From Cenococcum geophilum (Eukaryota): a stretch of 64,000 nucleotides of DNA. Position 1 is the stretch's first letter, and each line of letters begins with the position of its first letter. Positions 11,701 to 40,932 of this stretch are shown in pieces. The position numbers and the translations under genes are program-made. The notes under the pieces are model-generated. The model had not been told where the DNA came from. It searched no databases and saw only the letters and a list, made by a program, of their open reading frames with translations. Location: the NCBI GenBank assembly GCA_050273025.1, contig CP158635.1, positions 14,818,001-14,882,000 on the forward strand, in the 5' to 3' direction.

Positions 11701-11998
11701 GTGGTTTCATTTTCCAAGTACCGCTAGTGTATAATTACAGCACCTGTCGTACCAACCGCGTGCTTACGCGCTCGGTACGCCGAGTACGCGTTTACGCGTT
11801 TGGTGCACCAACCACCCGCTTACGCGTCTGGTGCACTTCTGAAGCACTGACTAATTAGGGGGGAGGCGCATCAGTATATAGACTACGTAGTCTGCTTCAT
11901 ATAATCGACAGTTACCACCGTCTAAATGAGCATACGATACTATACGTATTTCGTGCCCCTAGACACGACTCACTTGTACCATTAAATTGGTATAAATA
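5729..11998 (+). mobile_element. Full-length Copia LTR retrotransposon, GalEa-like clade (6270 bp), RIP-damaged
   Basis: 271-bp LTRs at 5729-5999 and 11728-11998, with 5-bp TSD GGTAC (5724-5728, 11999-12003). Protease MIDTGAS (ORF 8127), integrase LHRRFG..CSFC (ORF 8715), RT and RNase H FTDASF follow in Copia order. CTGATTAGT after the 5' LTR replaces a tRNA PBS. Confidence 0.95.
6995..7115 (+). repeat. 15-bp tandem repeat (CCGCAAGCTATAGAT-like) encoding PQAID-type pentapeptides in GalEa gag
   Basis: About 8 degenerate units are visible directly. It explains the antisense RIYSL-repeat ORF at 6858-7115. Confidence 0.85.
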
Positions 11999-13432: not shown

Positions 13433-13696
13433 CTATTCTCCTCTTATAATTTAAGCCTTTAAGTGTAAGGGATATTTTATCCCTTACTTGGGCTTGCAGC
13501 CCTCCTATCCTCCTTATCGGTTCGTCTCTCTCTTTCCCTTTAGGCTATTGCCTACCCTTATTACTATATCGTTCTCTTTTATCAACTCTTTTATAACTTA
13601 TGCTCGGCTTACCTACTCCCTACTATTCTCCTAGGCGAATAGCCTTAATTAAGTTTTAGCGCCGCTAATACTAGTAAATACGATATATATTATAAC

Positions 13697-16600: not shown

Positions 16601-19600
16601 ATTTCCGCCCCCTAGGGCTAACTAAGCCGCGCTAGCCTAGCCGTAGTACTAAAGAACTAAATACGCCCCAAACTAAACGATATTAGATACACTTATACCG
16701 TTAATTTCACCTATTTCTATAAATAAAAAGGCGTAAAGGTAATAAGGATCTATATAGCGGAGCTAGTAGAACTAATTAAATAAGAAGAACACTAATAGCT
16801 GCTTAAAGAGCTGCCTATAGGCCTAATAGAAGTACCAAACCTATTAGAAAAGTCTTTCCGCTAGCTAGTAAAGGGCGACTATACAATAAAAAAAGCCCGT
16901 AAAGTGCTACCCCCTTATTTTTATAATTTCCTTAAGATAAACCTAAAAACTAAGCCTTAGTCTCTACGTCAGAAGATAGTTAATACTAATATTAAAAAAT
17001 TCCTAAAAGGCAAACTAGGATTAACCTGTAAAGACATTTTATAACGCTTATTAAAGGAGTTCCGCGAATATATTAAGCACTTTCTCCCTAAAAATGTAGA
17101 TAAGCTACCCCCTTACCAACTATAGGACTATAAAATTAAAATTATCCCTAGAAACTAGGCCCCGTACTATAAAAACAGACTACTCTTACCTGCTAAACTT
17201 AAGTATGTAAAAAAGTGGATTAATAAAATACTAGATAAGGGTTTTATCTATAAATTAACCTTACTAGCTGCCGTACTACTCCTCCTCGCTGCTAAGCCTG
17301 GTGGTAGTATATAAATCTACTATAACTACTAAGGCCTAAATATAGTTACTATTAAAAATCGGTACCTACTACTACTAATCCGTAAGACACTTAACGCACT
17401 TTATAGTGCTAAGTACTTTACTAAACTTAATATAATTGCTGCGTTTAACTAAATCCGGATTGCGGAGGGCTATAAGTAGCTTATAGTATTTATTACCTAG
17501 TTTAGACTCTATAAGATACTAGTTATACTATTTAGCCTCTATAATTCACCCGCTATATTCTAGAACTATATTAATTATATCTTATATAACGCCCTTAATA
17601 ACTACTATACTGCCTACCTTAATAATATTCTTATCTTTTCTAAAACACGCACCAAGCATACTAAGTATGTAAATAAAGTTATCCGAAGACTTGGTAATAC
17701 CAGACTTTAGATTAATATTAATAAGTCTAAGTTCTACTCTACTAAAACAAAATACCTTAGCTTAATTATCTTAATTAATGGCATAACTATGGACCCTAAG
17801 AAGGCATAGGCCTTACAGGAATAAAAGGACCTAATATTAATTAAAGAACTATAATAATTTCTTAGCTTTATAAACTTCTACTAATAATTTATTTAAGGTT
17901 ACTCTGCCGTTGCTATACCTATAATAAAACTCCTAAAGAAGGATATTGGATGGCTATAGGGACTAGAATAAGCCAAATCGTTTAAGGCCCTTAAGGGAGC
18001 CTTTACCTTAGTACTAGTACTAGCATACTATAACTATATAAAGAAGACAGTGGTAGAGATAGACGTATTAAATTAGGCTTCTAGCGGAGTCCTTTCCTAG
18101 TATAATAATAACGGTAAATTAAAACCGATTGCTTTCTTCTCCGTAAAGCACTCTACGCTAGAGTATAACTATAAGATCTACGATAGAGAGCTCTTAGCTA
18201 TTATTAAGGCTTTAGAGGAATAGTATCCTGAGCTATAAGGGACTAAGGAGCTATTTAAAATTATTACTAACCATAAAAACCTATAGACATTTATAACTAC
18301 TAAGCAGCTAAATTAATGCTAAGTCTAGTAGGTAGAGTTCCTTTTATAGTTTAACTTTGTAATTATATATAGACCTAGTAGCAAAGCCACGCTTCTTAAT
18401 GCCTTAAGCTAGCTACTAGGAATAAGGCCTAAGGACGCTAATAATAAACGCCTCTACTACCGAGCCTAAGTCATTATACCGCCCTAGAAAATTAACCCTA
18501 TAATCTTAAAAGAATTGCTATATAAGTTCTATAACTCTAATAATACGGAGTTTATAGCCGCTCTAGACCTTAAAATAGCTAAAAAGTTACTAAATAAGTT
18601 AATCTAGTTGGGATACCAGGAGAATAAACTTATAAGAGATATAGTAGCGGCCCTACGTAATTGGAAAGCTCGCCGTTAGCTAAAAAAGATTAGGAAATTA
18701 CTCTATTATAATAAGTTAGAATACAGTATCGTTAATAAACAGATCTACTTCCACCAATATCTCTTTATCCCTAACGCCCTAGACCTCTACCTAGAAGTTA
18801 TTTATTACTCTTATAGCAGCAGCCCCGCTAATTACCCTAGCCGGGATAAAACCCTTAACCTCTTAAACTAAATATACTAGTAGCTAGGAATCTCCTAATT
18901 TACGGCTACCTTCGTTAAAGACTATACCCTATACTTTCGTACTAAGACCCCCTGTTTTACCCCGCCCGGTTTTCTAAAGCTATTAAAACTACCCGCTTAC
19001 CTATAAACTAATATTTTAATTAACTATATTATAACGCTACTGGTATATTAACGCCATGGTAAGGCATATAAATATATCCTTATTATTATAGACCGCCTAA
19101 CTAAAATATAATACCTTGTTTTAGTAACAGGACTCTTAATAAAGGAGCTAGTTAACGGCTTTATTAATAATATATATAAGCTCTATAGTGTACTAAGTAT
19201 AATTATTTCCAATCGCGGTATATAATTTATTAGCGACTTTTAGTAACGTAATCCACTAGCAAGCGGCCCACCCTACTAAGTGGCCCACTCCAAAAACCAC
19301 CAAAAAACACAAAAATCGTTCTTTAATATCTTAATAACAGCTTAATAATAAATTTTAAAATTTTAAAATTAGACTCTTCTACCTATTTTAAGACCTTTAT
19401 TAAAGTTTTAAAGTAATTTAATAAGTGGTTCTTAAGATATAATAATTAAACTTAAATTTAAGAGCTAAATCTTAATAAATCTTAATATATTAATAATAGC
19501 TAAACCAATTACTCTAAAACTTTAATAGAGGTCTTAAAGTAAGTTTAAACGTCTAATTATAATTTTTTATAATTTATTATTAAGCTGTTGTTAAGATATT

Positions 19601-21123
19601 TAAGAGCGATTTTTGGGTTTTTTTGTGGTTTTTGGAGTGGGCCACTTGGTGGGGGTGGGCCGCTTACTGGTGGATTACGTTAATAACTAAGTAAACGCCT
19701 TAAGATAACCTTAAGACTAAGTTTAGCCTAGTACCCAGAAACAGATGGCTAAACTAAAATTATTAACGCTGCTATAAATAAGTACCTTTGTGCTTTTATT
19801 AGCTTTATATAGGACAACTAGGTTAACTACCTACCGCTTACTAAGTTTACTATAAATAACTAAGTTAATAAGAGCATAGGCATCTCCCCGTTTTTTGCAA
19901 ACTATAGCTTTAACCCTCGCCTTAGAATCGAGCCTACTAGCCCCCGCCTACTAACACTATTAGTATAAGTAAAGAAGGAGTTCTTCCGCGTAGACTTTGT
20001 GGCTAACTGCTTTAAGCGGATATTAATATAGCTTAAGGCCCTAGCCTAGATTTTATAGTAGCGCTATAAAGATAACGCTAATACCTATAGGGATAAGAGC
20101 GCGTTATTCTATAAAGGCGATATAGTTATAGTTAGCTTAAAAAATATAAAGATAAATAAACCTAAAAAGAAATGGGATAATAAATAGGACGGCCTGTACC
20201 CCGTACTTATAGTATACTAAGGGGTAGTTATAGTAGACCTCCCGGACTATATCTAAGTAAATAAATCCTTCTATATATCTAAGGTCCGCCTTTAGGTTGC
20301 TAAAAAGATCCCTAGCTAAGTAAATATTAATACTATAAAGCGCCGCAATATATAAGGACAAGTAGTAGAGAGAGATAATAACGGTAATATAGAAAATAAA
20401 TAGGAGTTTAAGAAAATCCTTAATATATATAACGAAGACCCCTAAGGCCTAATTTATAAAATTAAATAGAAATATTATAAGGATATAACCTAGCAGCTAG
20501 AAGAAGACCTAAAGGGTTATAAATAGGCTATATAGCGCTTCTATAAGCAATACCTTAAGAAGCTAAAACCCCTAGATTAGGCACAAGATAAGGAAAAGTT
20601 ACGCTAAGGTTATAGCCAACCACCGTATTAAAATTTGTAGTAGTTAAGATATTATAGAACTTTAACCGGCGGTTAAAGTTGTTTAATTAGCTAGATTCTT
20701 ACTAAGAAACGCTATACGGACCGATTTAGGTGGTAGTATAAAGTTCTGCCAACCTTACTTACTAAACTAACTAATTAGGATTTTCTATGCCCGGTACAGA
20801 AAATCGCTATTAGCTTAGTTAAGGGTAGTAAGTAGAACTAATATCTTTGCGGTAAAAAACTGGCGACCCTAAATATTGCCTATTTTAGAGTTATTTATTT
20901 AGTTTAGAGACCAAACCATTTAGGGGAGAGGAGTACTGTTACGGCACTAACCTAACGCATACTGTTTTATACTATCTTATACTATTTCCTACTATTAGCT
21001 AGCCCACTACTAGTACCTTAGCGGCCGGCCCTACTATTTATATATAATACCCCCTTTCTACCTTCTTCTCCTCTTTATACTATAACGTAGTTATTTAGTC
21101 TACTTTATTATAGTACTATAATA
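13697..21123 (+). mobile_element. Full-length Ty3/Gypsy chromovirus LTR retrotransposon, RIP-inactivated
   Basis: 187-bp LTRs at 13697-13883 and 20937-21123, TSD ATAAC (13692-13696, 21124-21128) and PPT TAGGGGAGAGGAG before the 3' LTR. Degenerate gag (~14.1-15.6 kb), RT YLNNIL (from YLDD, ~17615), RNase H, integrase and chromodomain (~20400-20580). Confidence 0.95.
19246..19680. mobile_element. MITE of the Tc1/mariner Fot1-pogo group (435 bp), inserted in the Gypsy integrase
   Basis: TA TSD on both sides. Long TIRs ACGTAATCCAC...GTGGATTACGT extend over 100 bp, and the element is non-coding. The termini resemble Aspergillus Tan1/Vader TIRs. Confidence 0.92.
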
Positions 21124-21554
21124 ATAACAGACAACCTTAAATCGCTAATAGAGTATATCCGCCTCGTCTTTCTAAGCTATTCCGTTCTTATGTTACTTAC
21201 GCCAATATAGGCTTTACTTCTTAGCAGTTTAATAGTGCCGAGACGAGTTATTTTATATAATTAGAGGCGCAGATATAATTAAAGACTACTTTTATAGGGA
21301 TAGAGCTCCTTATAGTTAACTATATTAGGATATATTTAATAACTTTTTAAAAAAGGAGGTATATGTAAGTGGTTTACCTACCTTATATCTTATTTATAGA
21401 TTAGGCCTTTTTAGAGGGAATACTTAGCTAGGGGTTTTAAAAGTAAAGCGGTTTATCTAAGTTCTGGGAAATAATTAGATAAGTAATTAGATAGTGCATA
21501 ACGTTAGAGCGGTAAAGCTAGCTAAAAGCTAGTAGAAAGGAATAATACTTAAAT

Positions 21555-21905
21555 TAAACTGGTATAAAGGGAGTTACTTAGTTATAACTGGTATAAAAAA
21601 TAGACTGGTATATTTTTAGTGTTGGATTTAGACTAGTATAAAGGGAGTTACTTAGTTATAACTGGTATAAAAAATGAACTGGTATATTTTTAGTGCTAAA
21701 TTAGACTAGTACGAAGAGTTTACTGTAGATTAGTAATACGTTATTAGAAGGATAAGGACTAGTACTATAAACCTACTAGTAAAAAAAGTGTACTAGTATA
21801 TAAGACTAGTAGTTTCGTACTAGTCTAAAAATTGTACTGTTTTATATACCGTTTACACCTACGTACTAATACATTCTACACGCCAGTCTATATTATATAC
21901 TAGTT
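21555..21905. repeat. Cluster of ACT(G/A)GTA motifs with a ~73-bp direct duplication
   Basis: ACTGGTATAAAGGGAGTTACTTAGTTATAACTGGTATAAAAAA occurs twice (~21558, ~21631), with many further ACTAGTA copies. Confidence 0.7.
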
Positions 21906-22819
21906 TAATAACTTCTAAAGATAGCAATAGAGCTATAAATGATTCTTTCTACAAATATAGGCTCTAACGACAATAAGACTAAAAATAATCCGCTTTAAAT
22001 TAAGATTAAGGTTAGGAGCGGGGTAATTATACTTAGAAAAAATACACTATATTATAATCTAGTATTTAGCATAAGCGGCAAATACTAGAGTATCTGCGTT
22101 GCTGCTTGCGCTAATCTAGTTATAGGTTAGTAGTAGATAATGCGGGCCATCGCGAGATATTAGTAAATAATTTGCACTAATATATATGTGACTAAAGCTG
22201 TTGCCTAACTGCCTAGATTACGTGTATATTAAAGACTTAGCTAAGCTAATAAGATAACTATAAGAGGACTTTGTAGGCAGGGGGCTATAAAGGCACGATT
22301 ATAGAATAAAAGAGATTAGAGAGGAGACAAATTCTTAAAGAGGTGAGGCCTCTAGGATTAAGGAGAACTATATATACTATGGGCATGTATATCCGTTACG
22401 TAACTAATAACCTTCTAAGGGCTACCCTAAGGGCTTTCTAAGGTTACTATAATAATATTATAACAATCCACCTAGTGTAGAAACGAAGTAATAGAATAAC
22501 GTAATTCCGGTTTATAGTTACTATATTTGCCAAGACCAAACTAGTATAATATAGGTTTAGGTAGGGCATCCTAAGGGATATTTCTTTTTAGGATAGCCCA
22601 AAATTAACTTAGTAAAGACTCTTATAGAGATCTCTAAATTACTATAACTTAGCTAAGAGTTGCATTATAATTAAAGTATTTTTATAAAAGTAAAGTAATG
22701 TAAATACTAATTAAATAGTATACTTTCTTGTAAACCTATATGCAAAACCCGCAAGTAAAATATATAGGCTAAATGCTAACTATTTAGAGACGGCTACTAA
22801 AAACCGGCTAAAGGCATAT

Positions 22820-23110
22820 CGCTATAGGCACCTACTATTATGGGTACTCCCTAATATTATAGGTGTTCCCCGTTACTATAGGTACTGCTACTTATAGGTA
22901 CTCTCCTTTATTACGGGTACTCCTTATTTTCGTAGGTACTTTTTATTATAGTAGGTACTCCTTATTATTGTGGGTACTCCTTACTATTAGAAGCACTCCC
23001 TATTATAGGTACTCCCTTTTATTATAGGTGCTCCCCGTAATTATAGGTACTTATTAATATCGTGGGTACTTATTAATATTATAGGTACTTATTAATACTA
23101 TAGGTACACC
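22820..23110. repeat. Degenerate ~19-bp tandem array (core GGGTACTCC / TAGGTACT)
   Basis: More than 12 recognisable units. Confidence 0.85.
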
Positions 23111-23155
23111 AAGTGCACTAAGTGCTAGCTTTTTACAGCTGCTTACTTTAGACTT

Positions 23156-23500
23156 AAACCCGCCCTAAGCTTAGTATATTCCTCTATTAAGTTAATAGCT
23201 AACCCCGGCGTCTTTAGTTGTTATAGCTTATAAGCAAACCCGCCCTAAGCTTAGTATATTTCTCTATTAAGTTAATAGCTAACCCTAGTGTCTCTGGTTA
23301 GTATAGTATGTAAGTAAACCCGCCCTAAGCTTAGTATATTCCTCTGTTAAGTTAATAGCTAACCTTAGTATCTTTGGTTGTTATAGCTTATAAGTAAACC
23401 TGCCCTAAGCTTAATATATTCCTCCGTTAAGTTAATAGCTAACCCTAATATCTCTAGTTGGTATAGGATGTAAGTAAACCTACCCTAAGCTTGGTATAAC
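23156..23500. repeat. 80-bp tandem array, 4 copies plus a partial
   Basis: Units start AAACCCGCCCTAAGCTTAG at 23156, 23236, 23316, 23396 and 23476. Confidence 0.95.
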
Positions 23501-23549
23501 CTAATTTTAGGACCCTTTATTTTTAGCTAACCGTAGTTAGGGGATCCTA

Positions 23550-24080
23550 GTTACGTTTAGAGAATAGCTATATCTAGAGAATTATCGGATGCCTAATTGG
23601 CCTAAAATGACCGGTCCTCTTAGTAGCGCTAAATAGGAGAACTATGTCTGGAGAACTATGTTTGGAGAATTATCGGATGCCTAATTGGCCTAAAATAACC
23701 GGTCCTCTTGGCAGCGCTAAATAGGAAAACTATGTCTGGAGAACTATATTTGAAGAACAGCTACGTCTAGAGAATAGCCACGTCTGGAGAATAGCTATGT
23801 AGAGGGTAGCTATGTCTAGAGAACAGCTACTAGAGAACAGCTATATAGAGGGCAGCTATATCTAGAGAACAGCCACTAGAGAATAGCTACTGGAGAATAG
23901 CTACTAGAGAATAGCTACTAGAGAATAGCTACGTCTAAAGAACAGCTACGTTTAGAGAATAGTTATATCTAGAGAGTAAGAACGCTACGTCTAATAGCTA
24001 TATCTAGAATAGCTACGTCTAGAGTAGTTACGTTTAGAGAATAACTAGTCTGACAAACGGTTATATTTGGAGAATAATAG
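23550..24080. repeat. 13-17-bp array (TCTGGAGAACAGCTACG-like) with an embedded 88-bp duplication
   Basis: Many GAGAA(C/T)AGCTA units. ATTATCGGATGCCTAATTGGCC occurs at 23581 and 23669. Confidence 0.9.
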
Positions 24081-25104
24081 TCTGCAGAAAGTTATAACTA
24101 GTCTAAATTTTACCTATTTTACCTTCTTTCTACCGCGCCTAATATATCTTATTACTATAGATTTAAACGCGGTACTTTTGTTAATATAGCCTTAAGAAGA
24201 AGTTTATAAAGCGCCTCTAAAGGTAAGTGTAATATAAAATCTATAATCTAATATAATTAAGATAGTAGAGGTTTTGTATAGAACATAATTAGCAATTTAA
24301 AACGCCTATAGATAAAACCTTTATAGCATCTAGAGCTGCTTTAGCACTCTCTTTTATAGTTAAGCTCTATTAAGAATTAAGTATGAGGATACTTTGTATA
24401 CGAGATATAAGGGCGTTACTTGCGAGACATAATCTATAGTTTAGCGCTAGACTTTTAGAGGAAGGACTTTTACGGCTATTAGGACTTAGTATCTTCCGTT
24501 TTAAATAGAAATTAGTTAGAAAATCTAGCTCTAGGTAACTATTACGTAGATCTAATAGCTTACCTTAGTAAGCTTAGACCGTAGAATTAATTAGCGGATA
24601 TTGCTAACCTTTTTAGTTAAAAAGCTAATTCTATGGTGTGGGAACTGTAAAGCTTATTAACCTAAGTTTATAAGTAGTTTGTTACTTTTAGGTCCTAAAT
24701 TTTTAAACTCTAATTATAATTAACTACTCTATTATATTTTAAGCGGGTTTTTCTTCCTATAAATTATAAGTTTTCCCCCTATAACGGAGTAGTCTGCGTA
24801 GGCTAGGTTAGGATCCATATTAGATATTAATTAAAGAATATCTCTCTCTCTTTTATATTTTAAGTAGAGGGCTTTATATTAAAGCTCTGCAGTCTAAGTA
24901 TATACTATATTTATAACTAATATAATCTTAATTGCGAACTATAAAAGCTATATTAAAAGTCTTTAACCCAAAAGCCTTTATATTAAAAGCCTCTAAATAA
25001 GGGCCTATTAAGTATAAACTCGGGTTAAAATTTTTGTTAGTAGACCCCCAATAATCTATATATTGCTTTTGGTTTATCCCGCGTATAAGGGCAGATCTAA
25101 GCGA

Positions 25105-25245
25105 GCTAAGGGGAGACGAAGCCCTAGGGGAACGAAGCCCTGGGGGAATAGAGCCCTAGGGGAATAATCCCCTAGGGGCATAAAGCCTTAGGGGAATGGA
25201 GCCCTAGGGAATGGAACCGTAAGGGAGTGGAACCGTAAGGGCTTC
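25105..25245. repeat. ~17-bp tandem array (GGAACGAAGCCCTAGGG-like)
   Basis: About 8 degenerate units are visible. Confidence 0.85.
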
Positions 25246-26968
25246 CATAAATAGGCGAATCGCTGGGATTTATTTTCATCCTTAGCTTCTTAGCTTTTAA
25301 TTGGTTAGCACGCTTTGCTAAGCTTTACTAGCTTACGCTTTAATAAGCTACCCTACGCTGTTTTATGTAATTTATATCTAAGGCTACTACCTAGACTTAG
25401 AGAGAAAGAAAGAGGGGGATTAAGTAGGTTCTAAAAATTAAGTATTTAGTTTTAGGTGTAAATAAAGGGCTATTTTTAGCTTCTAAGAAGGTCCTAATTT
25501 TGGATGTTTTGAGAGCCCAAAATTAGGTCCTCTATTTTTAGGGTCTACTTAATTCCCCAAACCTTCTCGCTCCTATCTTTAACCTTTACTTTTCCTTTTA
25601 AGCAAATAGTGTAAAAATCCCCAATCCAGTGATAAAATTTCTGCATAGCTTTCCTATCCCACCAGTAAAGTTATTAAAAAAACGCCAAGCATCTATATAA
25701 TGTATCTCTTAACTAAGATAAGACGCCATACCAAATTTGTGGGGCTAGTGCTAATCCCTATGGACGACCCGCCTATGGGAGCGCCTGTACCTTTAATATA
25801 TATCCCGTTGACGAGGATATAGGTTAGGGATTTTAGTATAGTTTAGTTGACTTAGTAACCGCGCTAAGCTAAACGCCGAGCAGCGGAGGTAGTATATCAC
25901 CGCCATAACGCCATACTTAAGACCGTTTATTCTAACACTAACTACAGTTCCCCTATTTCCTCTATTCTTTAATCCTAGAAAGTAGACCCTTAATAAGAGG
26001 ATTTTCTAGGAGGTTAAAGCTACTAGGAGCTTTACCTTAGAAGCCTAAGGCTACTAAGAATTATCTAGGTAGAGCTTTTAAGAGGGCTCTTAGTCTAGGA
26101 GGGCTAATTCTAGGAGAGATGCGATTCTAAAAGAAACAATTATTCTATTATAGGGTGCTGTAGAACTCCTAAGAATATATTCTCTAAGAACCTAAGGTTT
26201 ACTACCTAGGAGATATAACCTTAGGATCCTTAGAGAGTGGGTATTTTAATAATCTAGTGGTGTAGCATCTATGTATATGCTGTGGCATTTTATATTAGGG
26301 TTTGGAGCTTTTAAGAGAATATACTTTCTAGAAGAGCTAGTTTTAGGAGATATACAATTCTAGGAAAATTGGTTATATAGCTCCTAAAAGCCTCTCTCCT
26401 ATAAGCATTTATCCTGCTCTAAATATATATATAGGAGTTTTATAGCGCCGTAAAACGGAATAATTATTTCTTCTAGGATTGCAGCCCTTCTAGGATTGGC
26501 TTTTTTAGACTAAGGGCCTTTTTAGAAGCTCTACATCCCTAAATCCCAAACTACCAACTTGTATTATATATTAATATATTTATCTTCACCTAGAAGACTA
26601 ATTCTCTTAGGAGCCTTGGGTTTCTAGAAGACTATTTCTAAAACTAAAGGCTTCTTAGAGCTTAATCCTAGGAGTTTAAGGCTACTAGGAGACCATTACT
26701 GGGATTTGACTACTACTTAGACTTAAAGGCTCCTTAGAAAATTAATCTTAGAAGCTAAAGGCTTTTAGGAGACTAAAAATAGAGCTCCTAATTTTGTTAT
26801 AAGGTTAAATATATTTTAAATTAGACCCTATTAGAGACTACCAAAAATAACCCCTACTAAAAATTACACCCCTACTAAAATCAAACCCCTCTCTCCCTAT
26901 TTCTCTTCTCCTAGCCCTACTAAACTTCCTAGTATAAATATACTTGTTTCCTAATAAAGATAGAAAGG

Positions 26969-28788
26969 CTATATAGAATTGGTCTTTAGAACCTAATGCT
27001 TAATTTTATAAACTATTTAAATATGGCTTTTAAAGTATAGAACGCCATTTAATATTATATAGCTTTCCTTACACACTAGATAACTATAGAGAATTTTTAC
27101 ATTTAGTACAAATAAATGGAAATGTTTATCCTTAATATAATCCATTATTTTAGCTAGCCGACTCTAACAGAAAATCCTCTATTAGTAAGGTAAATACTTA
27201 TTACCTATATAAAATAGACACTAGTAAGGGTTATATTTTAAAGGGAATAAATAAGGCGTTGCCAAATCTTCCTGCTTTATAGCTATCCCTTTTAATAAGT
27301 TAGAAGGCGTATTTCATTATTAAGCCTCTTAACGTAAGTATAACTTTATAAAATTTTAGATAAAATCAATCCGCTAGTTAAGGTTTACTAGCTCCGCAAG
27401 ATCTTTATATAGGCTGTAAAGTAATTCTATAATGCGGGCCCGCTGCTCTAGCTAGTAGGTAACAGTGGCGGCCTAGTTAGCAGCGCTTAAATTATTAGGT
27501 AATACGCCTTTGCACTCCTCCTTAAGCTCTATTATATTATTATTTATAAAATATACTTCTCTAGCCATTTATTCTGCCTTATCTTATAAACGCTTTATCT
27601 TTTAATTTAGAGTAGCGTTTACTTCTTTTTTCTGTTAAATAAGATCTTTTTTATTAGAAAGAGTAAAAGGCTTAGAGCTATTTTATATCTGTCTTATTTT
27701 CTCTATTAAAATATCTCTCTACTAACACAACTTAACTATTTTTAGGTGATTTGTAATTTCGCATAACTGCTCCTTAGTTAGCTCTTTTAGCGCGAGCGGG
27801 TTAAATATTAGGCTTATATTTCCTATAACCTTTACTAAAGCCCTATTAGATAGCTTGTCTAAATATACTACCTAAATATTATACTTAACGCGCTAGTTGA
27901 TATAAAACTAAAATATACTGTTATAAGAATGGCCCATAACCTAGTCTCGTTCAGCGGTAGTTGCTATATTTATAAATTTGGGTAAAGTTAGCCTAGATCT
28001 ATAGAATAAGTAGAATTAAGCTAATAGGGAAGAGTATACTATTAACAGCATTTCTAGTGGCGTATTAGATATATAATTGCAATAATAGCTGCTTAAGACC
28101 AACATCGCGTCTTAGTCACTTTATATAATAGTAAGAAGTTTTGGCGCGCAGGGGTATAGGGCTCTTTTTAGACGCGGAAGTTTGGCATTTATAATATTCT
28201 GGTTCGCAAAATATAGGTTTATTTAGCTTACTCTCCTTCCACCTAAAGATTTTATATAGTTTTTAAGCGGGAACCTAAGCACGTAGAATTTTTTTAGGGT
28301 TTTGTATGGTTAAGGTAGCGAAGGCATTATTATAAAGTCCTATAGCAACTATAAGGGTAATAGGATAAAGGAAAGGGTTAGGATTCTAATATAATTTGTA
28401 TATTTTCCTATAAACCTATTAGCCTATAAATATAGGGAAAGTAAAATAGGAATACTTGTGGTTAAGGCTTTTAATCCTCTCCCTTTCTACGGATTATTAT
28501 AATAAATATAGCCAGTACTATATAATCTCTAACCTATACTATAAGTATTATAATATCCTAGTAGAGTATTAATTTTAATTTATTTATATCCACGCCCGTA
28601 AAAGAGATTTCGTCCTTATTATCCTCGCCATTATTTAAATACGCGCTTTTATATCCATTGTTAATTTTATTAATATTATTATAAGAGTTAGCCTCTTTTA
28701 TATTACTCCCTATAACCTTATTAACCTTCTGTCGGTATCACCTAGGGGTACTGCAATTGCAATATAAGGTAACTGTTTCTTGATTCAT
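26969..28788 (-). pseudogene. DUF3435 tyrosine recombinase (Starship captain-like), RIP-inactivated, apparently short at the N-terminus
   Basis: Minus-strand translation gives RKGED(R)KP(Q)P, FRWKESKLNKPIF, L(G)RDVG, TTAERD(Q)VMGHS..F(Q)FYIN (~27890-27965) and a C-terminal (Q)CLF(C)IG..LP..R.FC..(H)...C..(H)FKSH...(H) zinc-finger region. There are about two introns and a candidate ATG at 28788. Residues in parentheses are de-RIPped. Confidence 0.85.
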
Positions 28789-29044
28789 TCGTGTCTTTTC
28801 TTTCATCTACTAAAAGAGAAAGAAAGGGGTAGTAAAGGTCGGGCTATCTGTCGGGCCGTAGGTGGTCAGGTGACCTACGCTACGCATACAGCCCCTACCG
28901 CATACGCTCTACGCCATTTATCTAATAGCAATATTTATAACCTCTGCTCGTATAAACACCATCTTTATAGCTATATTAACTAGTAAGTATAGCTAAGACC
29001 CTATATACGTTAGGAAAAAATTTACTAGTATTTAATTTTACTTT

Positions 29045-29460
29045 TCTGCCATTTTAGCATTTTCTAGCATTTCCTAGCATTTCTAGCATTTCCTAGTATT
29101 TAGCTGCTAAATGCGGTATTTAGAATTAAGTGTTCGCACTTAGCTGCTAAATACAGCATTTAGAATTAAGTATTAGCATTTAGCTACTAAATACGGCATT
29201 TATAATTAAGTGTTAGCATTTAGCTACTAAGTGCTAACTATAAGATTACTAAGCATATATAAAAGTATAATTTTTATTATTTTAATATTTTATATACACT
29301 TTATTAATATTACTAAGCATATATAAATATATAATTTTTATAAATATAATATTTTATATACGCTTTATTAATATTACTAAGCATATAAAAAAGTATAATT
29401 TTTATAAATTTAATATTATTAATAAAAATAATATATTTTATTAATATTAGTAAACATAGG
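29045..29460. repeat. 40-bp palindrome-containing array followed by a 64-bp AT-rich array
   Basis: TAGCT(G/A)CTAA at 29101, 29141, 29181 and 29221, within the hairpin GCATTTAGCTGCTAAATGC. ATTACTAAGCATATA at 29245, 29309 and 29373. Confidence 0.9.
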
Positions 29461-29859
29461 GGGCGGGGCGGTATTATAAAAAAATTTACTAGTATCTTAA
29501 ATTAGGTTTATGCTAATTAAGTAATTTTAGCATTTAGCCGCATTTAGTTGCATTTTGCGGCTATATACTACACTACTAATAATAATGCTGTAATTTACGG
29601 CTAAACGCTGCCTTAATAATAAAGGTGCTATAAGCTGCAGCTTAATACTCTCTTAGAAATAATAATACTAGAAATATTTTAGTTAACTAAGTTTACTATA
29701 TACGCTATACTACTACCTATAAGTTACTAGAAGATACGTCCCTTAGCTTATATATACGCCACTATATAATTATAATAGGTTTTGCTATATAGCGGCTATA
29801 TATAGTATTTAAAACTATCTATAGTTATATTATACTCTTATAATCATTACCAGTATTAG

Positions 29860-32800
29860 ATAGTCTTAGTATCTTCCTTCTTATCTTAGCCTACTTTTAA
29901 GCTTAAATCGGCCTTCTCCTTATATACCAACTTATACAGTAATAACGTAAATTTAGTTAACTTTAATATCCTTTATTTAATACTTAACTTCTAATTAGCT
30001 ATAATAGTATTATAGTAAACGGGCTTAGTCTATCCTTATCAATCTATTTAAGCAAATAGTTACTTTACCTCTAAGAGCTTATAGCTTAGCTTAACTATAA
30101 TAGTATAATTTACGCGCTATAGGTTAATAGATAGCTTAATTAATATAAAGGTACAAAGTAGGATCTACTTAGAGTTATTAGTGTTAAAGGTTTACCTAGC
30201 CTTAGCTTTCTTAATATTAGATATACCGGCTATATAATAGAGCACCTTATCTTTACCGTATTCTTTATATAGCCTATTAAACTAATAAGCTAGCGTAAGA
30301 GGTAAGTAAGTAGTAATAATAATCTTACACGCTAAACTATCTATTTATTTTTCGATATAAACATAATTATAGATTTTTTTAGCTTAAAAGAACTTTATAT
30401 TCTCTTAAAAATAGCGGTTAAGTATATTAGTAAACTCCTTACTAAGTAGGTTAGTAATCTACTTAGTGATAATTAGGTCCTTAAGTACGCAACTCTAAGT
30501 TTTTAGGCGTTTGTTATTAGACTTATTAAACTTATTAGACTTAATTATAATAGGGGTATACTAGTCCTAGTATTAGATAACCTAGGCTATACTTATTACC
30601 ATTTTCGCGTTAGTATATAACTTAGCTTAGGTAAGTTTTAGTATCTTAGGTTTAGTATTTAAATTACTACTATCTTCCTTCTATATAGCTAGAAGTTCCT
30701 TATATTAGCGCCTCTACTCTATTCTTACTTAGTCCTCTATAGCTATAATTATAGCCGCCTTAGTGTTATTAGGGTCGGCTTATAACATAACTAATTTAAA
30801 ATAGCTATTTTTTAGGATAAGCTTTTGCTGGTTAAACTAGAGTATTAACTCCCCTCTATATATCTAAAACGTTAAAATAACTATACGGAAAAATACAACT
30901 AGTTCGCCGAATTTCCTATCTACTATTACTCTAACTAGGTTAGTTTTCGCATCCTTATAAAGACGGTTAAATTCCTTCTTCTTTAGCTAGATATTTTCTT
31001 CTTTAAGCTTAAACAGTACTTTAAACTCCGTTCCCTTTAGCTTATTAGCTTCTTTCTACTCTAGCCTCTTTAATCCTACCGTAATAAACCGCATTAGTTA
31101 TATTAGGTTTCCGTTATTAGGCGTATTAAACGTACCCTATATAGCAGGGCTGCGATTATATATAATACGGTACTCCTTAACTATATCCTTAATAAATAAT
31201 ATTAAGACTTTACTGGTTGCGTTTAGGTGGCATTTATCCTAAAGGATACGCTTAATCTATATTATACTTTTCAATTTCTAATACATTCTAGGGGATTAGC
31301 TATTTAGGTGTTTCTATATATTAGTTTATATAGTAATAAACCCGCGTATTAGTTGTGTGGTAATATAATTTCGCGTAGTAATTAAAAGGAATTAGGCTAA
31401 GTATCTTAGCGCTAATAGTTCTATTACATTAGGGGTAGGGTAATAATTATTCTTAAACCTAGCTTTACCCTACGGGTATAATAGAAGAGCCTTACCAACT
31501 AAATATATATCGTTATTATTCTCCCATTATTCCTTATTAGTCCACTTAAAAGCCTTATAGATTTGCGGCTATTTATCCTTTTTTAGTTTACTAAATATCT
31601 TAACTTTATTATAGTTAAGGGCGAGAATTGTAATCCGGGGCGGGTTAGGGCGCTTTATAATCGCGCCGTCTTATAATATTACACTCGCGTTTTTTAGAAA
31701 TCCTAGTAGGCCTAGGGTTAGCATAAGGACGACTAAATAGCCTCGTTATAGGTCTATAGGGTACAGCTTTTTAGAGTTATCTTTGCAGTAGTATATAATC
31801 GGCTATATTACTACCTATAGGCATTTTATATCCAGCGGATGCATCTTAGGTAGGTAGTAGGTTACATCCCTAGTAGCTTAGGCCTCTTAAATATCTATTA
31901 CATTCTAATAATAAAAGTAGTTTATTAGCTATTAAGTGATTATTTATATAGTCTTACCTGCGCTAGGTTCGTCTACATAGATACTACTTTCTTTAATTAT
32001 CCTCTTTTACTTAAATACCTAAGCTATATATACTACTTAGTATAGGCTAAATTTAAAGCCTAATATAAGGCCCTAATTAGGGAGTTTAATTAGGGCGGTT
32101 TTAGAGAGTACTTTTAATAAGATAAGTAGGAAATACTTTAGAGTAAGCAGAAGATCTACCTCCATTATATATACTAGTATACTATTTAGGTTATCCTTCC
32201 TAGCCTTATAAAGCTGGGCTAAGAAAGTTTATTAATTAAGTTCTTCCTCTATATTTATATTTTAGTTATTATTATTAACTAAATCCTTATCTTAGTTGTT
32301 ATTATTAACTAAATCTTTATCTTTATCTCTACTTTTATATTCTTAGAGTTAGTATAATATAGGAACTAATTATTATATCCACTAGTACGTTACGGTAATT
32401 TGCTATCCTCTATGGTAATATCTTAAGGGATATTAATAGTTAGTAATATAGCAGTAGAGTCGTCTATTATATCATTAGGCTAGTATATACCTTTAGGTTC
32501 AGTAATAAATTATAGCAATTTACCGTTATCTGCGGTAATTTCTCTAGTACCGCTGTTACTTACTAATATAGGCTTATAGGTAGATAGGTTACGTCTTCCC
32601 TTTACTAATTACCTTCTGCGCATAACCGGCTTATTATTACTGTTTTTTATAAGGGTACCTACTGTTAATTCTGCTTAAGGGCGTTTCCTATTTCTATTTA
32701 GGTTAGCCTTGCGACTATTTAACTTCTTAGGCGCGGCCGGCTTACTTTTATTATCCTTTACTAGGGCACTTATTACCAATCTTAGTTAAGGCTACTTATT

Positions 32801-33950
32801 ATATCTACCTAATTTAGTCTTACTATTATCCGATTTCTTATATCTAATAGGCTCGCCCTTACTATTTTCCTTAGAGTTATATATTGCTAATTCTAAATAA
32901 CTCCGCTTTTTATCTTCTCCTAGTTTACTTTTACCGCTAGCCTTACGCGGCGTTAGGACTTGCTAGCTATCTTTTACGCTATATTTATGGCGTTTAGGCG
33001 CCTTAGATTTAATAGCTAGTGGTATATTATTAGCGGCAGCGACTTAGGAGTTTAAGCTAAAAGGTAAGAGTAATGCTATAAGCATAGCCTCCTTTATACT
33101 ATTTCTTGCTATTTCGCTAAGAGCTATAATAAGTGTGCCCTCTAACCATATTATAAGGTTTTTATATCTCTACGGCAATATATAAATATTCTTTTTAGGT
33201 AAACCGTTAATATTAAGCTCTATATAGGCTTATAGTTCCTCCTATAGCTTACCTAGAGCTATATATAGGTTTCCGCTTATTAGATATAAGACTTAAACTA
33301 CCCTAACTATTAACCTACCCATTAAGCCTATAGATTAGATTTTAATTTTAATATCTCCTATATTAATTACGTTGCTTACCGCTAGGGTTACTAGCTAAGG
33401 CAAAGGAATACTATATAGTAGGGTTATAGTAACGTCTATAGGCTATATTATATATAGTAGCTAAGGTAGCGTTATCTCGTCTTATGCTTTGGTCTTTAGG
33501 GGTAATATATATTTACGCAGAGCGTACCTACTCTTAGAGGTACTTAGTACCCTCCTTACGCGATTAGAATAAGCACTTCCTATAATTTTTAAAATTATCT
33601 ATAGTTTTTAATCCGGTAGAGCATTAGTAAATTATAAAAGTTACTTATAAAACTCCTTAACGTGCCCTTCTTTTATTATTATAGAGTTACCGCAATATAT
33701 TACGTGCTTAGGCTTAACTTTAATTATAATATCTTTAACTATCTCTTTTAGTCTATTATAGTTTTTAATGCTTATTTTAAAGCCTTAAGCAATATCTATA
33801 TCTTTAATCGGCTTTAGGTTTACCTTATACTATATATCTAGCTTTACCTATAGTTACGTTATTATTAAGTCGCTTATTTAGTTAGGTACGTATAATATTA
33901 CGGCATATATTAAGTAGAAGGTAACTATTAAAGTAGGAGGGCTTTATACG
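29860..33950 (-). pseudogene. SNF2/SWI2-family ATPase with a long N-terminal extension, RIP-inactivated
   Basis: Motif I (GG)I.VDEP(G)AGKT at ~31950-31990, Walker B RIL(W)D(E)CH at ~31225-31250, motif V INL(Q)R(A)N and motif VI (R)ID(RQ)G(Q)TKPV at ~30015-30135. A stop-interrupted but continuous-looking frame extends up to ~33.9 kb. Confidence 0.85.
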
Positions 33951-34331
33951 GTAGCTAGCTAGCGCTATACTAGTATAACTCTAGTATTAGATATAGTTAG
34001 AGGTTAGTTATAGAAGAGATAGAAGATAAGGTAAGTAAAGTTAATTAAGAAAAGGTAAAGAGGTAAATCTTATAATTACCCGTATATACCTATATAAAGG
34101 TAAAATTGGCTATAGTTTGCTATTACTAGTTAGGGTAAATGCGGCTAGACTTAATACTATATAGTTAAATAAGGGCATAATTATATAACTTATAGGGACT
34201 ACCCTACCTAGCCTATTTAGGGCTAGGTAGCGGTTTAGTACCGCTAAACTTTTATAGTTTTTAATATAAGCAATTTGTTAAGTACCTATAAAGGGGTAGC
34301 TAGTTATTATAGTATAATAGAATATAGGAGG

Positions 34332-34657
34332 TTATAGGCGTTACTATATTTCTTATTATTATATGGAGTTAGTATATATACGCGCCGCTAGAGTTAAAGG
34401 GCTAGCCTATATCTATATATGTGGGCTCTATTACTATAAAGTGTTTACTATATAATAGGTAGTATTTCTAGTAAATGGTGATATATTATACTTATTATAG
34501 GCGTTACTATATTTCTTATTATTATACAAAATTGGTAGATATACGCGCCACTAAAGTTAGAGGGCTAGCCTGTGTCTATATATACAAACTCTATTACTGC
34601 AAAGTACTTAGTATATAATAGGTAGTACTTCTAGTAAACGGCGACGTATTATACTCA
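34332..34657. repeat. 163-bp tandem duplication between the divergent helicase genes
   Basis: TTATAGGCGTTACTATATTTCTTATTATTATA starts at 34332 and again at 34495. Confidence 0.9.
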
Positions 34658-35739
34658 CTTTATAATCGCTAGTGTTATTATTATACTATATAGTACTTAA
34701 GGGCCTACTAAATAAGTTTATCTAAAATAATAATTATCTAGTGCCTGGGATTTACGTCTATATATAAATATCTAGTGCTTATTTAAACGCATATTTACCA
34801 TAAAAGGTAGTAAGAGGTTTTATATTTTATATTATAAGTTTATATAATTAATAGCATTTTGCGGCATTTTATAGTATTTTAGAGTATTTTAGGATAGTAG
34901 ATATATTGTATATACTAGTATCTAGCCACTTAGTAATATTAACTTATCTTACTATTTATCTATTTAGTATTATATAAGAGGTTAGTATTCTACTATAGTA
35001 TTTATTATATTAGAGTCTCTTAAATTTAATATCTTTATTTTAAATTTATCTAAAACTATATATAGTTTTATATATCCCACTCCCCACCTAGTACTCTAGT
35101 AAGAGATTATTTAGTTAATAATACCTTTTCTCTTACTAATTAAGGGAGGAAAAGACTTATACTTTCTAGCAGTAGTAGGCTATGCTTATTAGTGATATTT
35201 TTAATAAATTATAGTATTTAAGTTTCCGTTTACCTATAACGTAATTAGCCTACCTATAGTAAAGTGCTTTTACTTTACTACTTACTTCTCTTTTCCTTTA
35301 CCCTTCTATATATTTATATACTCGTATTATAAACTATAAGAGCTTAATAGTACTAAACTATTACCTAGCCTATATTAAGAGATAGGCTAGGTAAAGTAGT
35401 CCCTATAACTTATACTATACCGCGTCTTTTTTTATAGGTTAGTCTTATTACTATAAATTTACCCTTATACGCGTTTAACCTATATAGTATATAACTATAT
35501 ACTTTGTCGCCAAGGTCTTACTTATATAATTTTATTAGGGCGCGCTTTATTTTCTTACCTTTACTAGTTAACCTAACTCTACTAACTACCTACCCTTACT
35601 CCTACCCTATTAGTATCCACCTTTATAACTAGTGCCTTTATAGATTTATTTAAGCTATAGAGCCTTATAATATAGTAAGTTAGCTGCCTTATCTTTGGCC
35701 TTAGCTATATAATAGAGAATCTATATTTACTAATATGTT

Positions 35740-38700
35740 TATATAGACTACCGCTTAATACAGCCTACTACTAAAATAGACCTACCTACTAATTATTTTA
35801 TAACTTATGATGTTAACTACGTTTATAACTATAAAAAGTTCATTAAGGGTGTTATAGTTTTTAAGATTACCTTAATTATAGCAGCTATAGGCTCTAGTAT
35901 CTTATAAGGTAACGGTAAAGGCCCTATACTTAATTAGCCTCTTCTTTTAAAGCTTAGCAGTCTATACCTCTTAGCTAATAATACTCTAAAATGCTATCTC
36001 TATCTATCTACCGGCCATATACACGCTAATTATCCTCTTAAGAAAGCTTCTTAACTTTATTATAGCTGTAGTAAGGCTAGTTATCTTAAAGCTAACTACC
36101 TTAACCCTATATATAATAATTATAGGGAAGCTAGTTATCTTAAGAGTAACTATTTTAGTATAACGTATAACTAATATAGTGCTATAGGCTATAGAAAGCG
36201 AAACTATCCCTAGCTATTAGGTAATAAAAAAACAGACTTGCCTAAACTATAGCTCCCTAAACTATTAAACTATCTTCTATAATTAGGTATATAAGAACTA
36301 CAAAGTTATAGGGTATAATATTAATAATTATATAAGTAGACCTACTTTAATTCGGGTAATAGACGCCACAACCGCTTTAGGCAAGGTAAATGCATTAGGT
36401 ACTACTACTTTAAGTATAGCTATTACCTCTCCGTCGCCTAAACCTCTTAATATAGCTAGCTTCTATCTAGTAGTATATAGCCTAGTAGATAATTTAAACA
36501 TCTATATAGAGGATAGCGATTCCGTAATAGCTAAACCTTTAGATATACTCTAGCTTCTAAATAACAACTACCTTATAGTTTAGTTTATTATGCAAATTAT
36601 TAAAGAGCATATTATAGTATATAGCATTACATTTTAGGTGTTTTATAAGACCAGTAAAATGCCTACTTATTATTTATATAAGACGGCGTCTATCTAATTT
36701 ATAAATACTAATATTACTAGCAATGTTAAGGTTAATACTACTAATACTGCTTCTCTAGTTACTTAACGACTATTATATCTAACTACGCTTAAGTATCTTA
36801 CTTATATTCTCTCGCAAGATGTTATAACCCTATAACTTTACTATATTAGGTTTATTATCGCCTTTAATAAACTTATACTAGGTACGCGCACGTTGCTTAG
36901 TAAATACTTCTTTATTAATAGGGACTTTGGCCTATTTACGCCGTAAATCTATAAAGCTTAGGACATGCTGTTAAATAGTCCTATAGTTATTGTCCATTTC
37001 TTTACGCTAGGCACTAAATGGCTTAATAGTTATATCGCGAGCCTAAACGCGAGCCTATAATAGTAGAGCGTTAATAATCCTTTAGGTTGCTAGTGGAAGA
37101 ACTATAATATAAATATCTAGCTTAGTATATAGCTTTTAGTAGAGGACCAACTATCATATAAAATCCCCGCGAGGTATTAGTTTGATAGCGTTCTTAAGTA
37201 TTTTACGGTCTAGTTTTATACCGCAGTTATAAGCCTTAAGGCCGTTAATTAGAACCCCTAAGTACCTACTATTATTTATCTTATTACCTTCCTAGGTAGC
37301 GCGGACTAAGTCTACTACGCTACTATTTAGATAGTTAATAGTCTTACCCTTCGCACTAACTCTATTATTAATATCTTATTTTTAGGTAAAGACGTAGATA
37401 GCTAGGCCAGCTAAAAAGGAGTTATTATTAATACCACTCCCTTTAACTCTAGCTATAACTACTATACTTTTATCTTTTAACCACAGGTGGGTTATAAGTT
37501 TATACTAAACCCTATATTTGCTCTAGAATATATCCTAAGCAGTAATAACTTTATAATAGTTAGGAACCTAAGTAAAGCCCTAATTACGGCATAGGGCATT
37601 AAATATCTTATAACTAAGTATATTCCTAAGGTTAGAATCTCCTAAGAGATTAATACTCTACGCTACCTATAGCAAGGAGGCGATAGTTTCTATATTAAGC
37701 GCTAAACTATGCTATCTAACAACTTCATAGATCTCCTGCGTATTAATTACTTTAACTGCAATATTGCTAAGTATAGGAAGAACTTAGTTAATAATGCCCT
37801 TAAGGCCATCTTACTACTACTTAACGAAGAGTAAACAGGTGCCTATACTGCGCTTAAATATATAATAGGCGGTATTTTGCTAATATAAGGCCCTGGTAGT
37901 GTTAGGAAATTAACCTTCCTAATTATTTTAGTACAATACTAGTATTAACTTAGGTCGCCCTAGTAGGATCCTACTAGAATCTGGGTCCTATCGCTGCTTA
38001 ATTACCAACTAAATATGCTGGCTAAGATAATTAATAATGCGCTTATAAAGGACTATAAGGCTGTCCCGCTAAATTTCCTATTATCCTTCGCCGCTATATG
38101 CGCTTAACGGAAACTAAGGTCTATAAGTAGGATGCCATTATATAGCGAACAGCGGCAGGTATAAATACTCGTCCTAAGTATTTTAAGGAATAGGATAACT
38201 ATGCTATAATTAATAAGGACGCGTCTATGCTAAATATAGCATTCCTACTCTACCGTAGGTTTAAGGCTAGTAATACTACTAGCTTTAATAAGCAGTTATA
38301 GGTTATATATTTGTCTAAAGGTTAGTAGTTATTACGCCTTATAGGTGTTTTAGATAGTAATAAAAACCTATATCCTATTATAGACCCTAATATAACTAAA
38401 TACGCCAAATTCCGCTAATACTTGTACTAATTTGCGCTTAGTAATAATATAATATAAGATAATAAGATAGGATTAACACTTACGGCTAATATAGTTATTA
38501 TAAACCTAGCTAAAAAGGCTAATGTTATTCTTATAATACCTAATATAGTCTTACAGACTTATATATATTCTATTAGCGCTATATATATAGTTTTCTATAA
38601 TAAGGCTAGAAAGGCGTTTAAGCCAAACAGTTTTACTAGGTTTACCTAGAGCAGACCATATTTAATCTAGGGAGGTCTATAGATCTAGGCTAGTAACCCT

Positions 38701-39831
38701 GTGCCTTAGGTTTTCCTTAGTAATATATACTAACTAAAACCAATCCTTAGTCCCGATTTTAATAATCCGTTCTACTATTAGAAATTTATCTCCCTTTATA
38801 CGCGTCTCCTTATGGCTAGTGCGGATACGGTGTAGTTCTCGCTGTAATATTAATTTATTAAAGACATTATATATCTTATAAATACCGCCCTACCATATAG
38901 CTAGCTTTAGATAAGCCTAATAGTTAAGGACTAAGAGCAGTCGAAGCTAGCGGCGAGCTTTTTTAAGGATATGCTACGCTACAACCACCCTATTGCCTTT
39001 CTTGCTATTAATAGTACTATATAGGTAAACGAGCTTAGCTAATTAACGTATAACCTAGTTTACGCTTAACGCGTATTTTAGGTAGCTATAGCGCTAATAG
39101 ACTTTAGATTTAAGCCATTAGAGGTTAGCCTTGCCGTTCTATATATAGCCCAACTTGCCATCTACTCTGCAGCGCTATATACGCTTAAAAAATGGTGCTA
39201 CGCCTAGTAAGATAGCAGTAAGTGGCGGGAATTTACGCCAGTAGTTAGCGAGATTAAGGTCTTTACCGTTAACGGCATCTAAGGCAGCTAGGTAGAGTTA
39301 TTAGTATATAATATAATAGTCGCCAGTTCGCTAAAATTTATTTAGAATATAGTAAGGAACCTTTTTATAATTACTAGACTATAAGCGGGCCTTATTATTA
39401 TTAGTAGTTCCTAGGTAGTTTATAATTATTATACTAGCAATAAGACCTTTATAAATACCGCGTATTATAAAATTAAGAAGTAGTGTAAAAATAGTAAGGT
39501 ATTTATTAACCTTAAGAATCCTAAGCAGAAAGAGCACTTCTAGCAACTTATTGCCCTATTTAACGTTAACAAAACTATATATTATATCTACCGCTAGCAT
39601 ATAGCTAATTATACGCCTATTTTATATAGTATAGATATTAACTTTAATATTACTATCCCTAACTTTATAGGTATAGTAAATATTAGTAGTACTAATAATT
39701 ATACTAAAGCGTAGAACAAGGCTAATAAAGAGGGCGCTAATAATAACGGCTAGGGCGGTGCCGGTAATAATAGCGGGGATAACAATAATGGAGAGGATAT
39801 TAGTGGCGTCAGAATATAAGGAGGGTAGTAA
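35740..39831 (+). pseudogene. Upf1/DNA2-like SF1 helicase with three N-terminal CCHC zinc knuckles, RIP-inactivated
   Basis: Three C-x2-C-x4-H-x4-C knuckles (de-RIPped) at ~36058-36210. LNEE(Q) and I(Q)GPG(G)V(G)K(S)T at ~37820-37915, VF(HDE)A(G)KA at ~38590, FL(GD)I(HQ)LKP at ~38715, TV(D)GI(Q)G at ~39265 and motif VI TR at ~39375. Stop at 39829-39831; the start is uncertain. Confidence 0.87.
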
Positions 39832-40932
39832 GAATGGATATTATAGACTTTACTAGTAGCAAGACCCTTAAATAGGGATATTAGATAGAAGTTAAGAGCG
39901 GTAGTAGCTATAGGCCTTTAACATTTATAATTTTACTACAGCACTAGGTAAAATATGGTATATTATAATATTATATATTACAGCTAAATAAAATATACTT
40001 TTAATAATTATAATCTCCAAAATAGATATGCGCATTATGGTAAAGATAGCCCAATTTATAAAGCCTAGTAATTTTAGTTTCTATCCCTTATAGGCTAGTA
40101 GTTAATTAATACTAATCTATAATCTAGATTTTAAGGGGTTATTTGGTTATAATCTATCGCTTTTAAATCTAAACTAAAAATCTAGCAGAAAGAACGCGTT
40201 TTTTTTCGATTTAATACGCATCTATAGCTCTACGGATTGTACGGATATATGCAATCTAAAGCCTTTAGATTTAATTTAGAGTTTAAATAAGAAGCTTTAA
40301 GCTCTTAATTTAAACTAACGCTAAGACCTTAGTTTAGATTCTGTATATAGTAAAGTTACTAACTTTTTAGTAACTTTTAGCGTGTTTTTTAGAACATCAA
40401 AAATTTATAGCTAAAGTTAAGTTAAACTAGAATTTAACCGAATGGTCGCCTTAAAATTAGATTAGAGCTTTAAATTAACTCTATTTTAAAGCCCTTATTC
40501 TAATCTAAACTTATAACTAAATATTCCCTAAGTACTTAACTAGTTAGATTATAGTCTAGATATCTTGCTAATAACCGTAACTATTATTAATTACTCTCCG
40601 TATAGTAGTATAGGCCGCCTTTATTTTCGCTAAACTATAATAGCCTTAAATAGGATCTAATCCTTTTCTTACTATAGCTGCCGCTAAGGCAATGTGACCT
40701 AACGCCCTCTCCTGCTTATATTAGGTATGCTATTCCTAATATTAGCACGCCGTTACTATATCTTAAAAAACTTATCGCTAATGCTATAGGCCCTTAGAAT
40801 AATACCTGTCCTATTATACTAGCTACTAGCTAGTAAAATACAGGACAAATATAATGTCTATATAGTTGCCCCTAATAGAAGAGCCTGTAGTAAAGGCAAT
40901 TCGCTATACTATATTTGGATAACTTAAGATTA

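Follow-up and report, generated by a model that had tools for sequence, protein, structure and literature searches.

A derelict Starship of probable Phoenix type and its RIP-mutated relatives in the genome of Cenococcum geophilum

The window analysed here, a stretch of 64,000 nucleotides (G000:C1:14818001-14882000, from a genome of 178 Mb in 7 contigs), carries on its minus strand a real DUF3435 Starship captain gene that is dead by RIP. This gene very probably belongs to a derelict Phoenix-family Starship, which spread through the genome, was killed by RIP, filled up with nested transposons and was truncated at its 5' end. RIP-type DNA occupies the window from position 1 to about 48.5 kb, the remainder being genic. 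The features recognised on either side of the captain are listed in Table 1.

Table 1. Features of the RIP-type part of the window (positions are those of the window)
Feature	Position	Strand	Evidence or remark
Nested LTR retrotransposon	5711..11996	+	LTR pair 96-98.5%; sister without the element
Nested Gypsy-type LTR retrotransposon, RT then RNase H	13695..21123	+	LTR pair 94%; sister without the element
Tandem-repeat-rich multi-copy module, no gene identified	21500..26000	-	Tandem arrays
Element-internal sequence behind the captain	26001..26968	-	88-89% collinear blocks with sister G000:C4:23.56 Mb
Last captain exon, helical region and C-terminal Cys/His zinc-finger region, 25 stops	26969..27970	-	44% to residues 416-737 of KAF2194980.1
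Captain exon ending in H-x-x-R box, 5 stops	28035..28406	-	PF11917; 53% to residues 294-417 of KAF2194980.1
Captain exon, acidic linker then beta-strand patch, 4 stops	28456..28729	-	42% to residues 229-299 of KAF2194980.1
Presumed solo LTR, 229 bp, TG...CA, inserted in captain	28730..28958	-	Sister copies without the insert
Captain stub, first-Arg motif Y-I-G-S-[Arg now stop]	28959..29007	-	Starship remnant ends here on its 5' side
Unrelated multi-copy DNA transposon region	29008..48518	.	Begins with a terminal repeat at 29008; stands in place of the Starship 5' arm

The captain gene and its damage

A first-pass annotation made from the letters alone had proposed a DUF3435 captain entirely missing from the open reading frame track, and both points stand. 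The profile search that it suggested on a stop-tolerant translation (X at stops) matches Pfam PF11917 DUF3435 in two of three pieces, 27967-26969(-) (E 1.3e-15, profile 214-412) and 28397-28032(-) (E 1.3e-11, profile 97-210), whereas no Pfam match was obtained for the remaining piece, 28806-28444(-). Between 20.5 and 42 kb there is no stop-to-stop open reading frame of at least 100 aa. The intact captain KAF2194980.1 aligns with all three captain exons of the window at 42-53% identity (joint E 2e-100). This alignment extends to the C-terminal Cys/His zinc-finger region that the annotation had also seen (about 27220-26996(-)), where several Cys and His are now Tyr. Two introns would lie at about 28455-28408 and 28034-27971(-), with edges placed by inference.

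The damage is clearly of the RIP type, as the annotation had held. The gene contains 35 premature stops (25 + 5 + 4 + 1), its GC content, TpA/ApT and (CpA+TpG)/(ApC+GpT) are 0.30, 1.48 and 0.56 against 0.47/0.74/1.25 in an un-RIPed relative, and 203 of its 206 differences from the nearest sister copy are transitions. Catalytic positions were mapped by alignment to KAF2194980.1, the scheme given for Starship captains in Table S5 of PMC11162782 being R-K-H/Y-R-H-Y. The first catalytic Arg codon has become a stop (28995-28993) and the second Arg position a Tyr (28064-28062), with the second His (27931-27929) and the nucleophile Tyr (27904-27902) retained; the captain of the sister copy retains both Arg. 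The part of the gene with the first catalytic Arg, which the annotation had not found, is thus present, in a stub that matches six of seven sisters at 77-94% over 50-53 nt (the seventh over 40 nt) and lines up with the GSRP motif of KAF2194980.1 via the sister copy.

What had been read as the start of the captain, at 28788, falls inside a 229-bp insert (28958-28730), so that this apparent N-terminus is not captain sequence. From general knowledge of such sequence features we take the insert to be a solo LTR. It is flanked by a 5-bp target duplication with one mismatch (28963-28959 / 28729-28725). All 40 candidates scored, from a total of 423, match it (39 others at 87-94%), and many of the matches come as pairs 2-10 kb apart.

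Only two of 7999 scored candidates passed in a homolog search, both of them captains of Zopfia rhizophila at about 50% identity. Six accessions looked up from the clusters of these captains are all (6/6) assigned to fam01 in Table S4 of PMC11162782, and fam01 is the family that this paper calls Phoenix. Judged by its nearest intact relatives, at about 44-53% over three exons, the window captain therefore appears to be of the Phoenix type (starfish family 1). TTTAC-type repeats and AT-rich or transposon targets add to the fit with fam01, and both are present in the window family.

The copy family and its boundaries

At least ten other copies of the captain region occur in the genome, at 81-89% identity (ten were used for projection). 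The intact ones run about 1.3 kb past the limit of the window captain and end at one sharp boundary with the motif TTAC-N7-A, the captain reading frame opening about 0.6 kb inside it. The boundary that the annotation had expected related copies to share upstream of the captain thus exists in the sisters. A pattern search recovered 13 5' ends of the family (control 0). At the other side, the 3' end of the copy at C4:19671895-19456731 gave 42 matches as a query. Among the 20 loci fetched, 7 carry the family terminus with a matching arm (A at +8 in 6 of the 7), 12 belong to a related family with a TAAC-N7-A-type site and one ends differently. Two largely un-RIPed metagenome loci have the same boundary type in AT-rich DNA, one of them 86% identical to the sister copy.

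The C4:19671895-19456731 copy spans 215 kb and has both its ends, together with an inverted arm and a direct repeat of 7 bp. Its flanks are the two halves of one host repeat with 95 pattern matches, and intact copies of this repeat therefore represent its empty allele, showing a clean insertion. Short direct repeats and asymmetric terminal inverted repeats are accordingly present at the level of the family, the window copy having only the 3' end. It could be argued that the window gene is a host or domesticated DUF3435 gene that was hit by leakage of RIP and was never mobile, as intact host genes lie about 20 kb away. At least ten copies are scattered through the genome with a common boundary but unrelated flanking DNA, which speaks against this, and the empty allele of the C4 copy, with its insertion into a repeat, refutes it, leaving this explanation with next to no probability.

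Within the host repeat of the C4:19.67 Mb copy there are long inverted repeats and tandem arrays of GC-richer 12-bp units; copies of this repeat are 95-99% identical despite their RIP background. An identification of the 97-99% flank matches as 5S rDNA was rejected, the sequence being an AT-rich repeat.

Several further captain-related loci were encountered. The third family, with the TAAC-N7-A-type site, shares more than 1 kb of 3' terminal sequence with the window family (77-80%); this type of end was found in 12 of the 12 loci read (one of them TAGC), with about 30 matches listed. Three long sister elements contain in their interior, at G000:C4:19498773, C5:10310973 and C6:12075317, the truncated N-terminus of a second captain (79-82%) in a shared context. 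A nearly intact DUF3435 gene with 1 stop lies at G000:C3:7969165-7970527, among about 150 listed stop-ridden matches, and the sequence upstream of it is similar to the host repeat of the C5:10.17 Mb copy, with the same TTAC and 69% identity.

Extent and interior of the window copy

The annotation had pictured a degraded Starship starting near 28.8-29.0 kb and running toward lower coordinates. The direction is supported by a family 3' end on the captain's strand 109 kb downstream, at G000:C1:14738067, about 5 kb short of the point where the RIP block stops; the start is not, as the true boundary has been deleted. RIP creates no transversions, and kinship was hence judged by these. The window captain is nearest to that of the C4:23.56 Mb copy, with 0.16% transversions against 1.1-2.5% to 9 others and 10 shared transversions, and the C1:14738067 end is likewise nearest to the 3' end of the C4:23.56 Mb copy (0.23-0.38% against 1.0-2.7% to 7 others). 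From this we infer that the two ends pair across the repeat-filled interior.

Since the captain and the C1:14738067 end have the same sister, the retroelements at 1-21 kb lie inside the Starship, whose 3' end is beyond them, as the annotation had supposed. They are a later pile-up and not mobilised cargo, as they are absent from the sister and fall in a gap of about 52 kb splitting a module that is near-continuous elsewhere: at two other loci, the block of G000:C1:14787200 follows the 21500-26000 module within 0.4-2.9 kb, implying that about 52 kb of later insertions split the module here. The 13695-21123 element matches RVT_1 (E 4e-14) and RT_RNaseH (E 6e-17). The 5711-11996 element gave no Pfam match in the one frame scanned; its gene order, read by eye from general knowledge, is presumably Copia-like. 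The window copy is a 5'-truncated Starship of at least 109 kb, and the annotation's alternative of a truncated derivative was thus right about the truncation but not in setting it against a real copy of a giant element.

Alternatively, the captain might stem from one copy and the distant 3' end from another, the two having been joined by rearrangement with nothing but a transposon graveyard in between. The interior anchors are indeed weak, interior modules are common to other captain families, and at least three multi-copy captain families would have offered material for ectopic recombination. Both ends are, however, in the correct strand and order, the same sister is found for both at equally low transversion distance, and just 7 3' ends of this kind turned up in 178 Mb (20 of 42 matches fetched), all of which makes the joining of two copies improbable. 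Apart from the 3 kb next to the captain and the last 4 kb, the window copy and its sister share short or 75-90% repeat-like anchors only, and an interior collinear chain to the sister, being mostly repeat-like, was not relied on as proof of one element.

Little that could be cargo was recognised in the window copy. The one possible case, in 6.5 kb scanned, is a kinase remnant with an E of 0.002, below the Pfam cut-off. This RIP-killed Ser/Thr kinase remnant lies at about 14.784 Mb of G000:C1 in a block of 5.3 kb that exists in no fewer than 12 full-length copies, several of them close to captains of another family. The block is common to the C4:19.46 Mb copy, and was rejected as family-specific cargo or as an anchor for pairing because it is multi-copy beside other captains.

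A rather more serious alternative, though still an unlikely one, is a compact captain-only transposon of about 10-20 kb that owes its size wholly to nested repeats and was never a giant cargo element. The high-identity scaffold common to the window copy and its sister does amount to only about 7 kb. Against this, the C4:19.67 Mb copy is collinear with the C5:10.17 Mb copy for more than 100 kb at 88-95%, separate nested insertions aside. These sisters share more than 75 kb collinear over a 100-kb span, at separate insertion sites and with both termini, from which it follows that the family moved very large DNA. A compact element may nonetheless describe the sub-lineage of the window at the time of its insertion.

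On the 5' side, the window copy has neither a boundary nor a direct repeat, and the direct repeat and empty site that the annotation had suggested looking for near 29 kb are not to be found there, the element's own 5' boundary being missing. No Starship 5' arm or N-terminal exons exist in the window plus 90 kb beyond its start (154 kb). A CCAACAC...TTAC look-alike near 49690 was dismissed as chance, since its spacing is wrong and an A is lacking at +8. The DNA transposon that abuts the captain stub has a TA duplication at one copy elsewhere, and its far terminal repeat is absent from the window; a Pfam scan of 29500-34200 in 3 frames gave no match. It may have inserted at a TA within the captain, a later deletion then having taken its far end together with the first 1.3 kb of the Starship. 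A stop-ridden frame of this transposon at 29900-30500(-), also with no Pfam match, resembles by eye what we take from general knowledge to be an SNF2 helicase C-terminus. Just beyond the RIP block, at 49815-54700(+), lies an intact-looking ABCC-type transporter gene, whose match to TMD0_ABC in the one frame scanned (E 3e-4) stays below the cut-off.

The 3' end of the window element stands tail to tail with a 3' end of a second captain family of 69 copies (see below), about 145 bp apart (C1:14737894-14738067), two Starships having used neighbouring TTAC sites at this position.

How the window copy came about can be outlined by reference to Hephaestus, which, according to the passages available of 10.1101/2022.08.04.502770 and 10.64898/2026.09.21.753150, depends on its captain for excision, passes through a circular form and integrates at TTAC(N7)A. 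If the window family behaved in the same way, its DUF3435 tyrosine recombinase would have paired both ends at short imperfect inverted arms around TTAC, and the element would have left as a circle, its joined ends forming an imperfect palindrome around five bases, to integrate at TTAC-N7-A in AT-rich, repeat-derived DNA. Copies reached at least eleven loci and were killed by RIP, to which dispersed duplication exposed every copy examined. Nested transposons would then have swollen the window copy to 109 kb or more, with a solo LTR entering the captain and the 5' 1.3 kb being lost where the other DNA transposon abuts.

Spacer variation, a high-copy second family and known systems

The N7 spacer of the 5' boundary is variable in a peculiar manner. 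Among the 13 5' ends, positions 3, 4 and 5 differ by transversion in 40, 12 and 40 of 78 pairs, and positions 1, 2, 6 and 7 in none of the 78; the 125 bases past the spacer show 1.6% transversions (9 copies). Even among three sisters that are no more than 0.10-0.23% apart, each has a spacer triplet of its own. For two copies with a non-consensus spacer and an empty allele, the triplet is not simply that of the host: the C4:19.67 Mb copy matches its host at spacer position 3 and is unlike it at positions 4-5, and the spacer of the C6:9.66 Mb copy is unlike both the family consensus and three empty host copies. In a second captain family of this genome, used as control, the spacers of 69 5' ends were counted by eye: 65 vary by C>T only, 3 have a single transversion and one row is shifted in register.

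Phoenix-type captains might exchange bases within the N7 spacer, so that a new left end may carry 2-3 bases of an earlier target, although we consider this tentative and somewhat less probable than its opposite. Ordinary direct-repeat extension accounts for part of the effect, and only a minority of the copies have an empty allele. Coupling over a full 5 bases is made less likely by spacer positions 1-2, which are fixed in 13 of 13 5' ends, yet differ from these in 4 of 7 hosts. One 5' spacer type, found in two copies, equals the host site of a sister, which is unremarkable among about 50 comparisons in AT-rich DNA. The coupling sequences of CTnDOT/IntDOT (PMC2817482) serve as an analogy for this spacer reading only, that system being bacterial and its 5-bp coupling sequence, in the part of the paper available, shown biochemically, whereas only 3 positions vary here. 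In the literature searched, which covered few subscription journals, no description of spacer exchange or a coupling sequence in Starships was found.

The second captain family of the genome is considerably more abundant. It has 69 5' ends (control 0), 47 of which are followed on the same strand by a 3' end no more than 300 kb downstream (control 5; 64 of 82 pattern rows for 3' ends were kept by eye). The shortest span is 28 kb and 13 fall at 33-36 kb, which makes the family a Starship of roughly 34 kb that is present in very many copies. At G000:C4:13083897-13083947 and G000:C1:32915431-32915481, a 3' end of this family runs straight into a 5' end; such head-to-tail junctions are the sequence expected of a circular intermediate, fixed in the chromosome.

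Phoenix Starships, with a type element from Macrophomina (PMC9156397) and with Horizon, Thetis and Limos named as members in the sections available of PMC12257634, are like the window family in having a DUF3435 captain as first gene, a TTTAC/TTTACT-type direct repeat, a size of 100-200 kb and AT-rich, transposon-derived targets. The window family differs in that all copies examined are RIP-dead, with the window copy lacking its 5' arm and little cargo recognised, and in its 13 5' ends in a single genome, compared with 0-3 Phoenix copies per Macrophomina isolate in Table 1 of PMC9156397. Hephaestus and its captain HhpA share the TTAC(N7)A target (here in 6 of 7 3' junctions) and asymmetric ends, according to the available passages of the two reports cited above, but Hephaestus is a live fam02 element reported to leave no footprint, and no variable 5' spacer was found described in those passages. 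Derelict Starships that are RIP-mutated, non-functional and swollen by nested transposons are, in the parts available of PMC11162782 and PMC9156397, already on record; unlike these, the window copy has a captain remnant and a 3' end that can still be traced.

RIP-killed Starships having been described before, the window copy alone is ordinary, and the worth of the finding lies in the copy family rather than in a single fossil. The passages of the literature available give up to nine Starship elements per genome, and the 13 and 69 ends counted here, far above the low numbers in the literature searched, imply that Starships can multiply in the manner of ordinary transposons until RIP stops them. 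The use of a host repeat as empty site yields both ends, the target motif and the empty allele from one genome, with no comparison of isolates. The cut sites of captains and their need for homology are not addressed in the Starship literature passages searched, and both could be tested cheaply by way of the variable spacer. If the spacer exchange is true, the junctions would map the Starship strand-exchange region and record jumps from parent to daughter.
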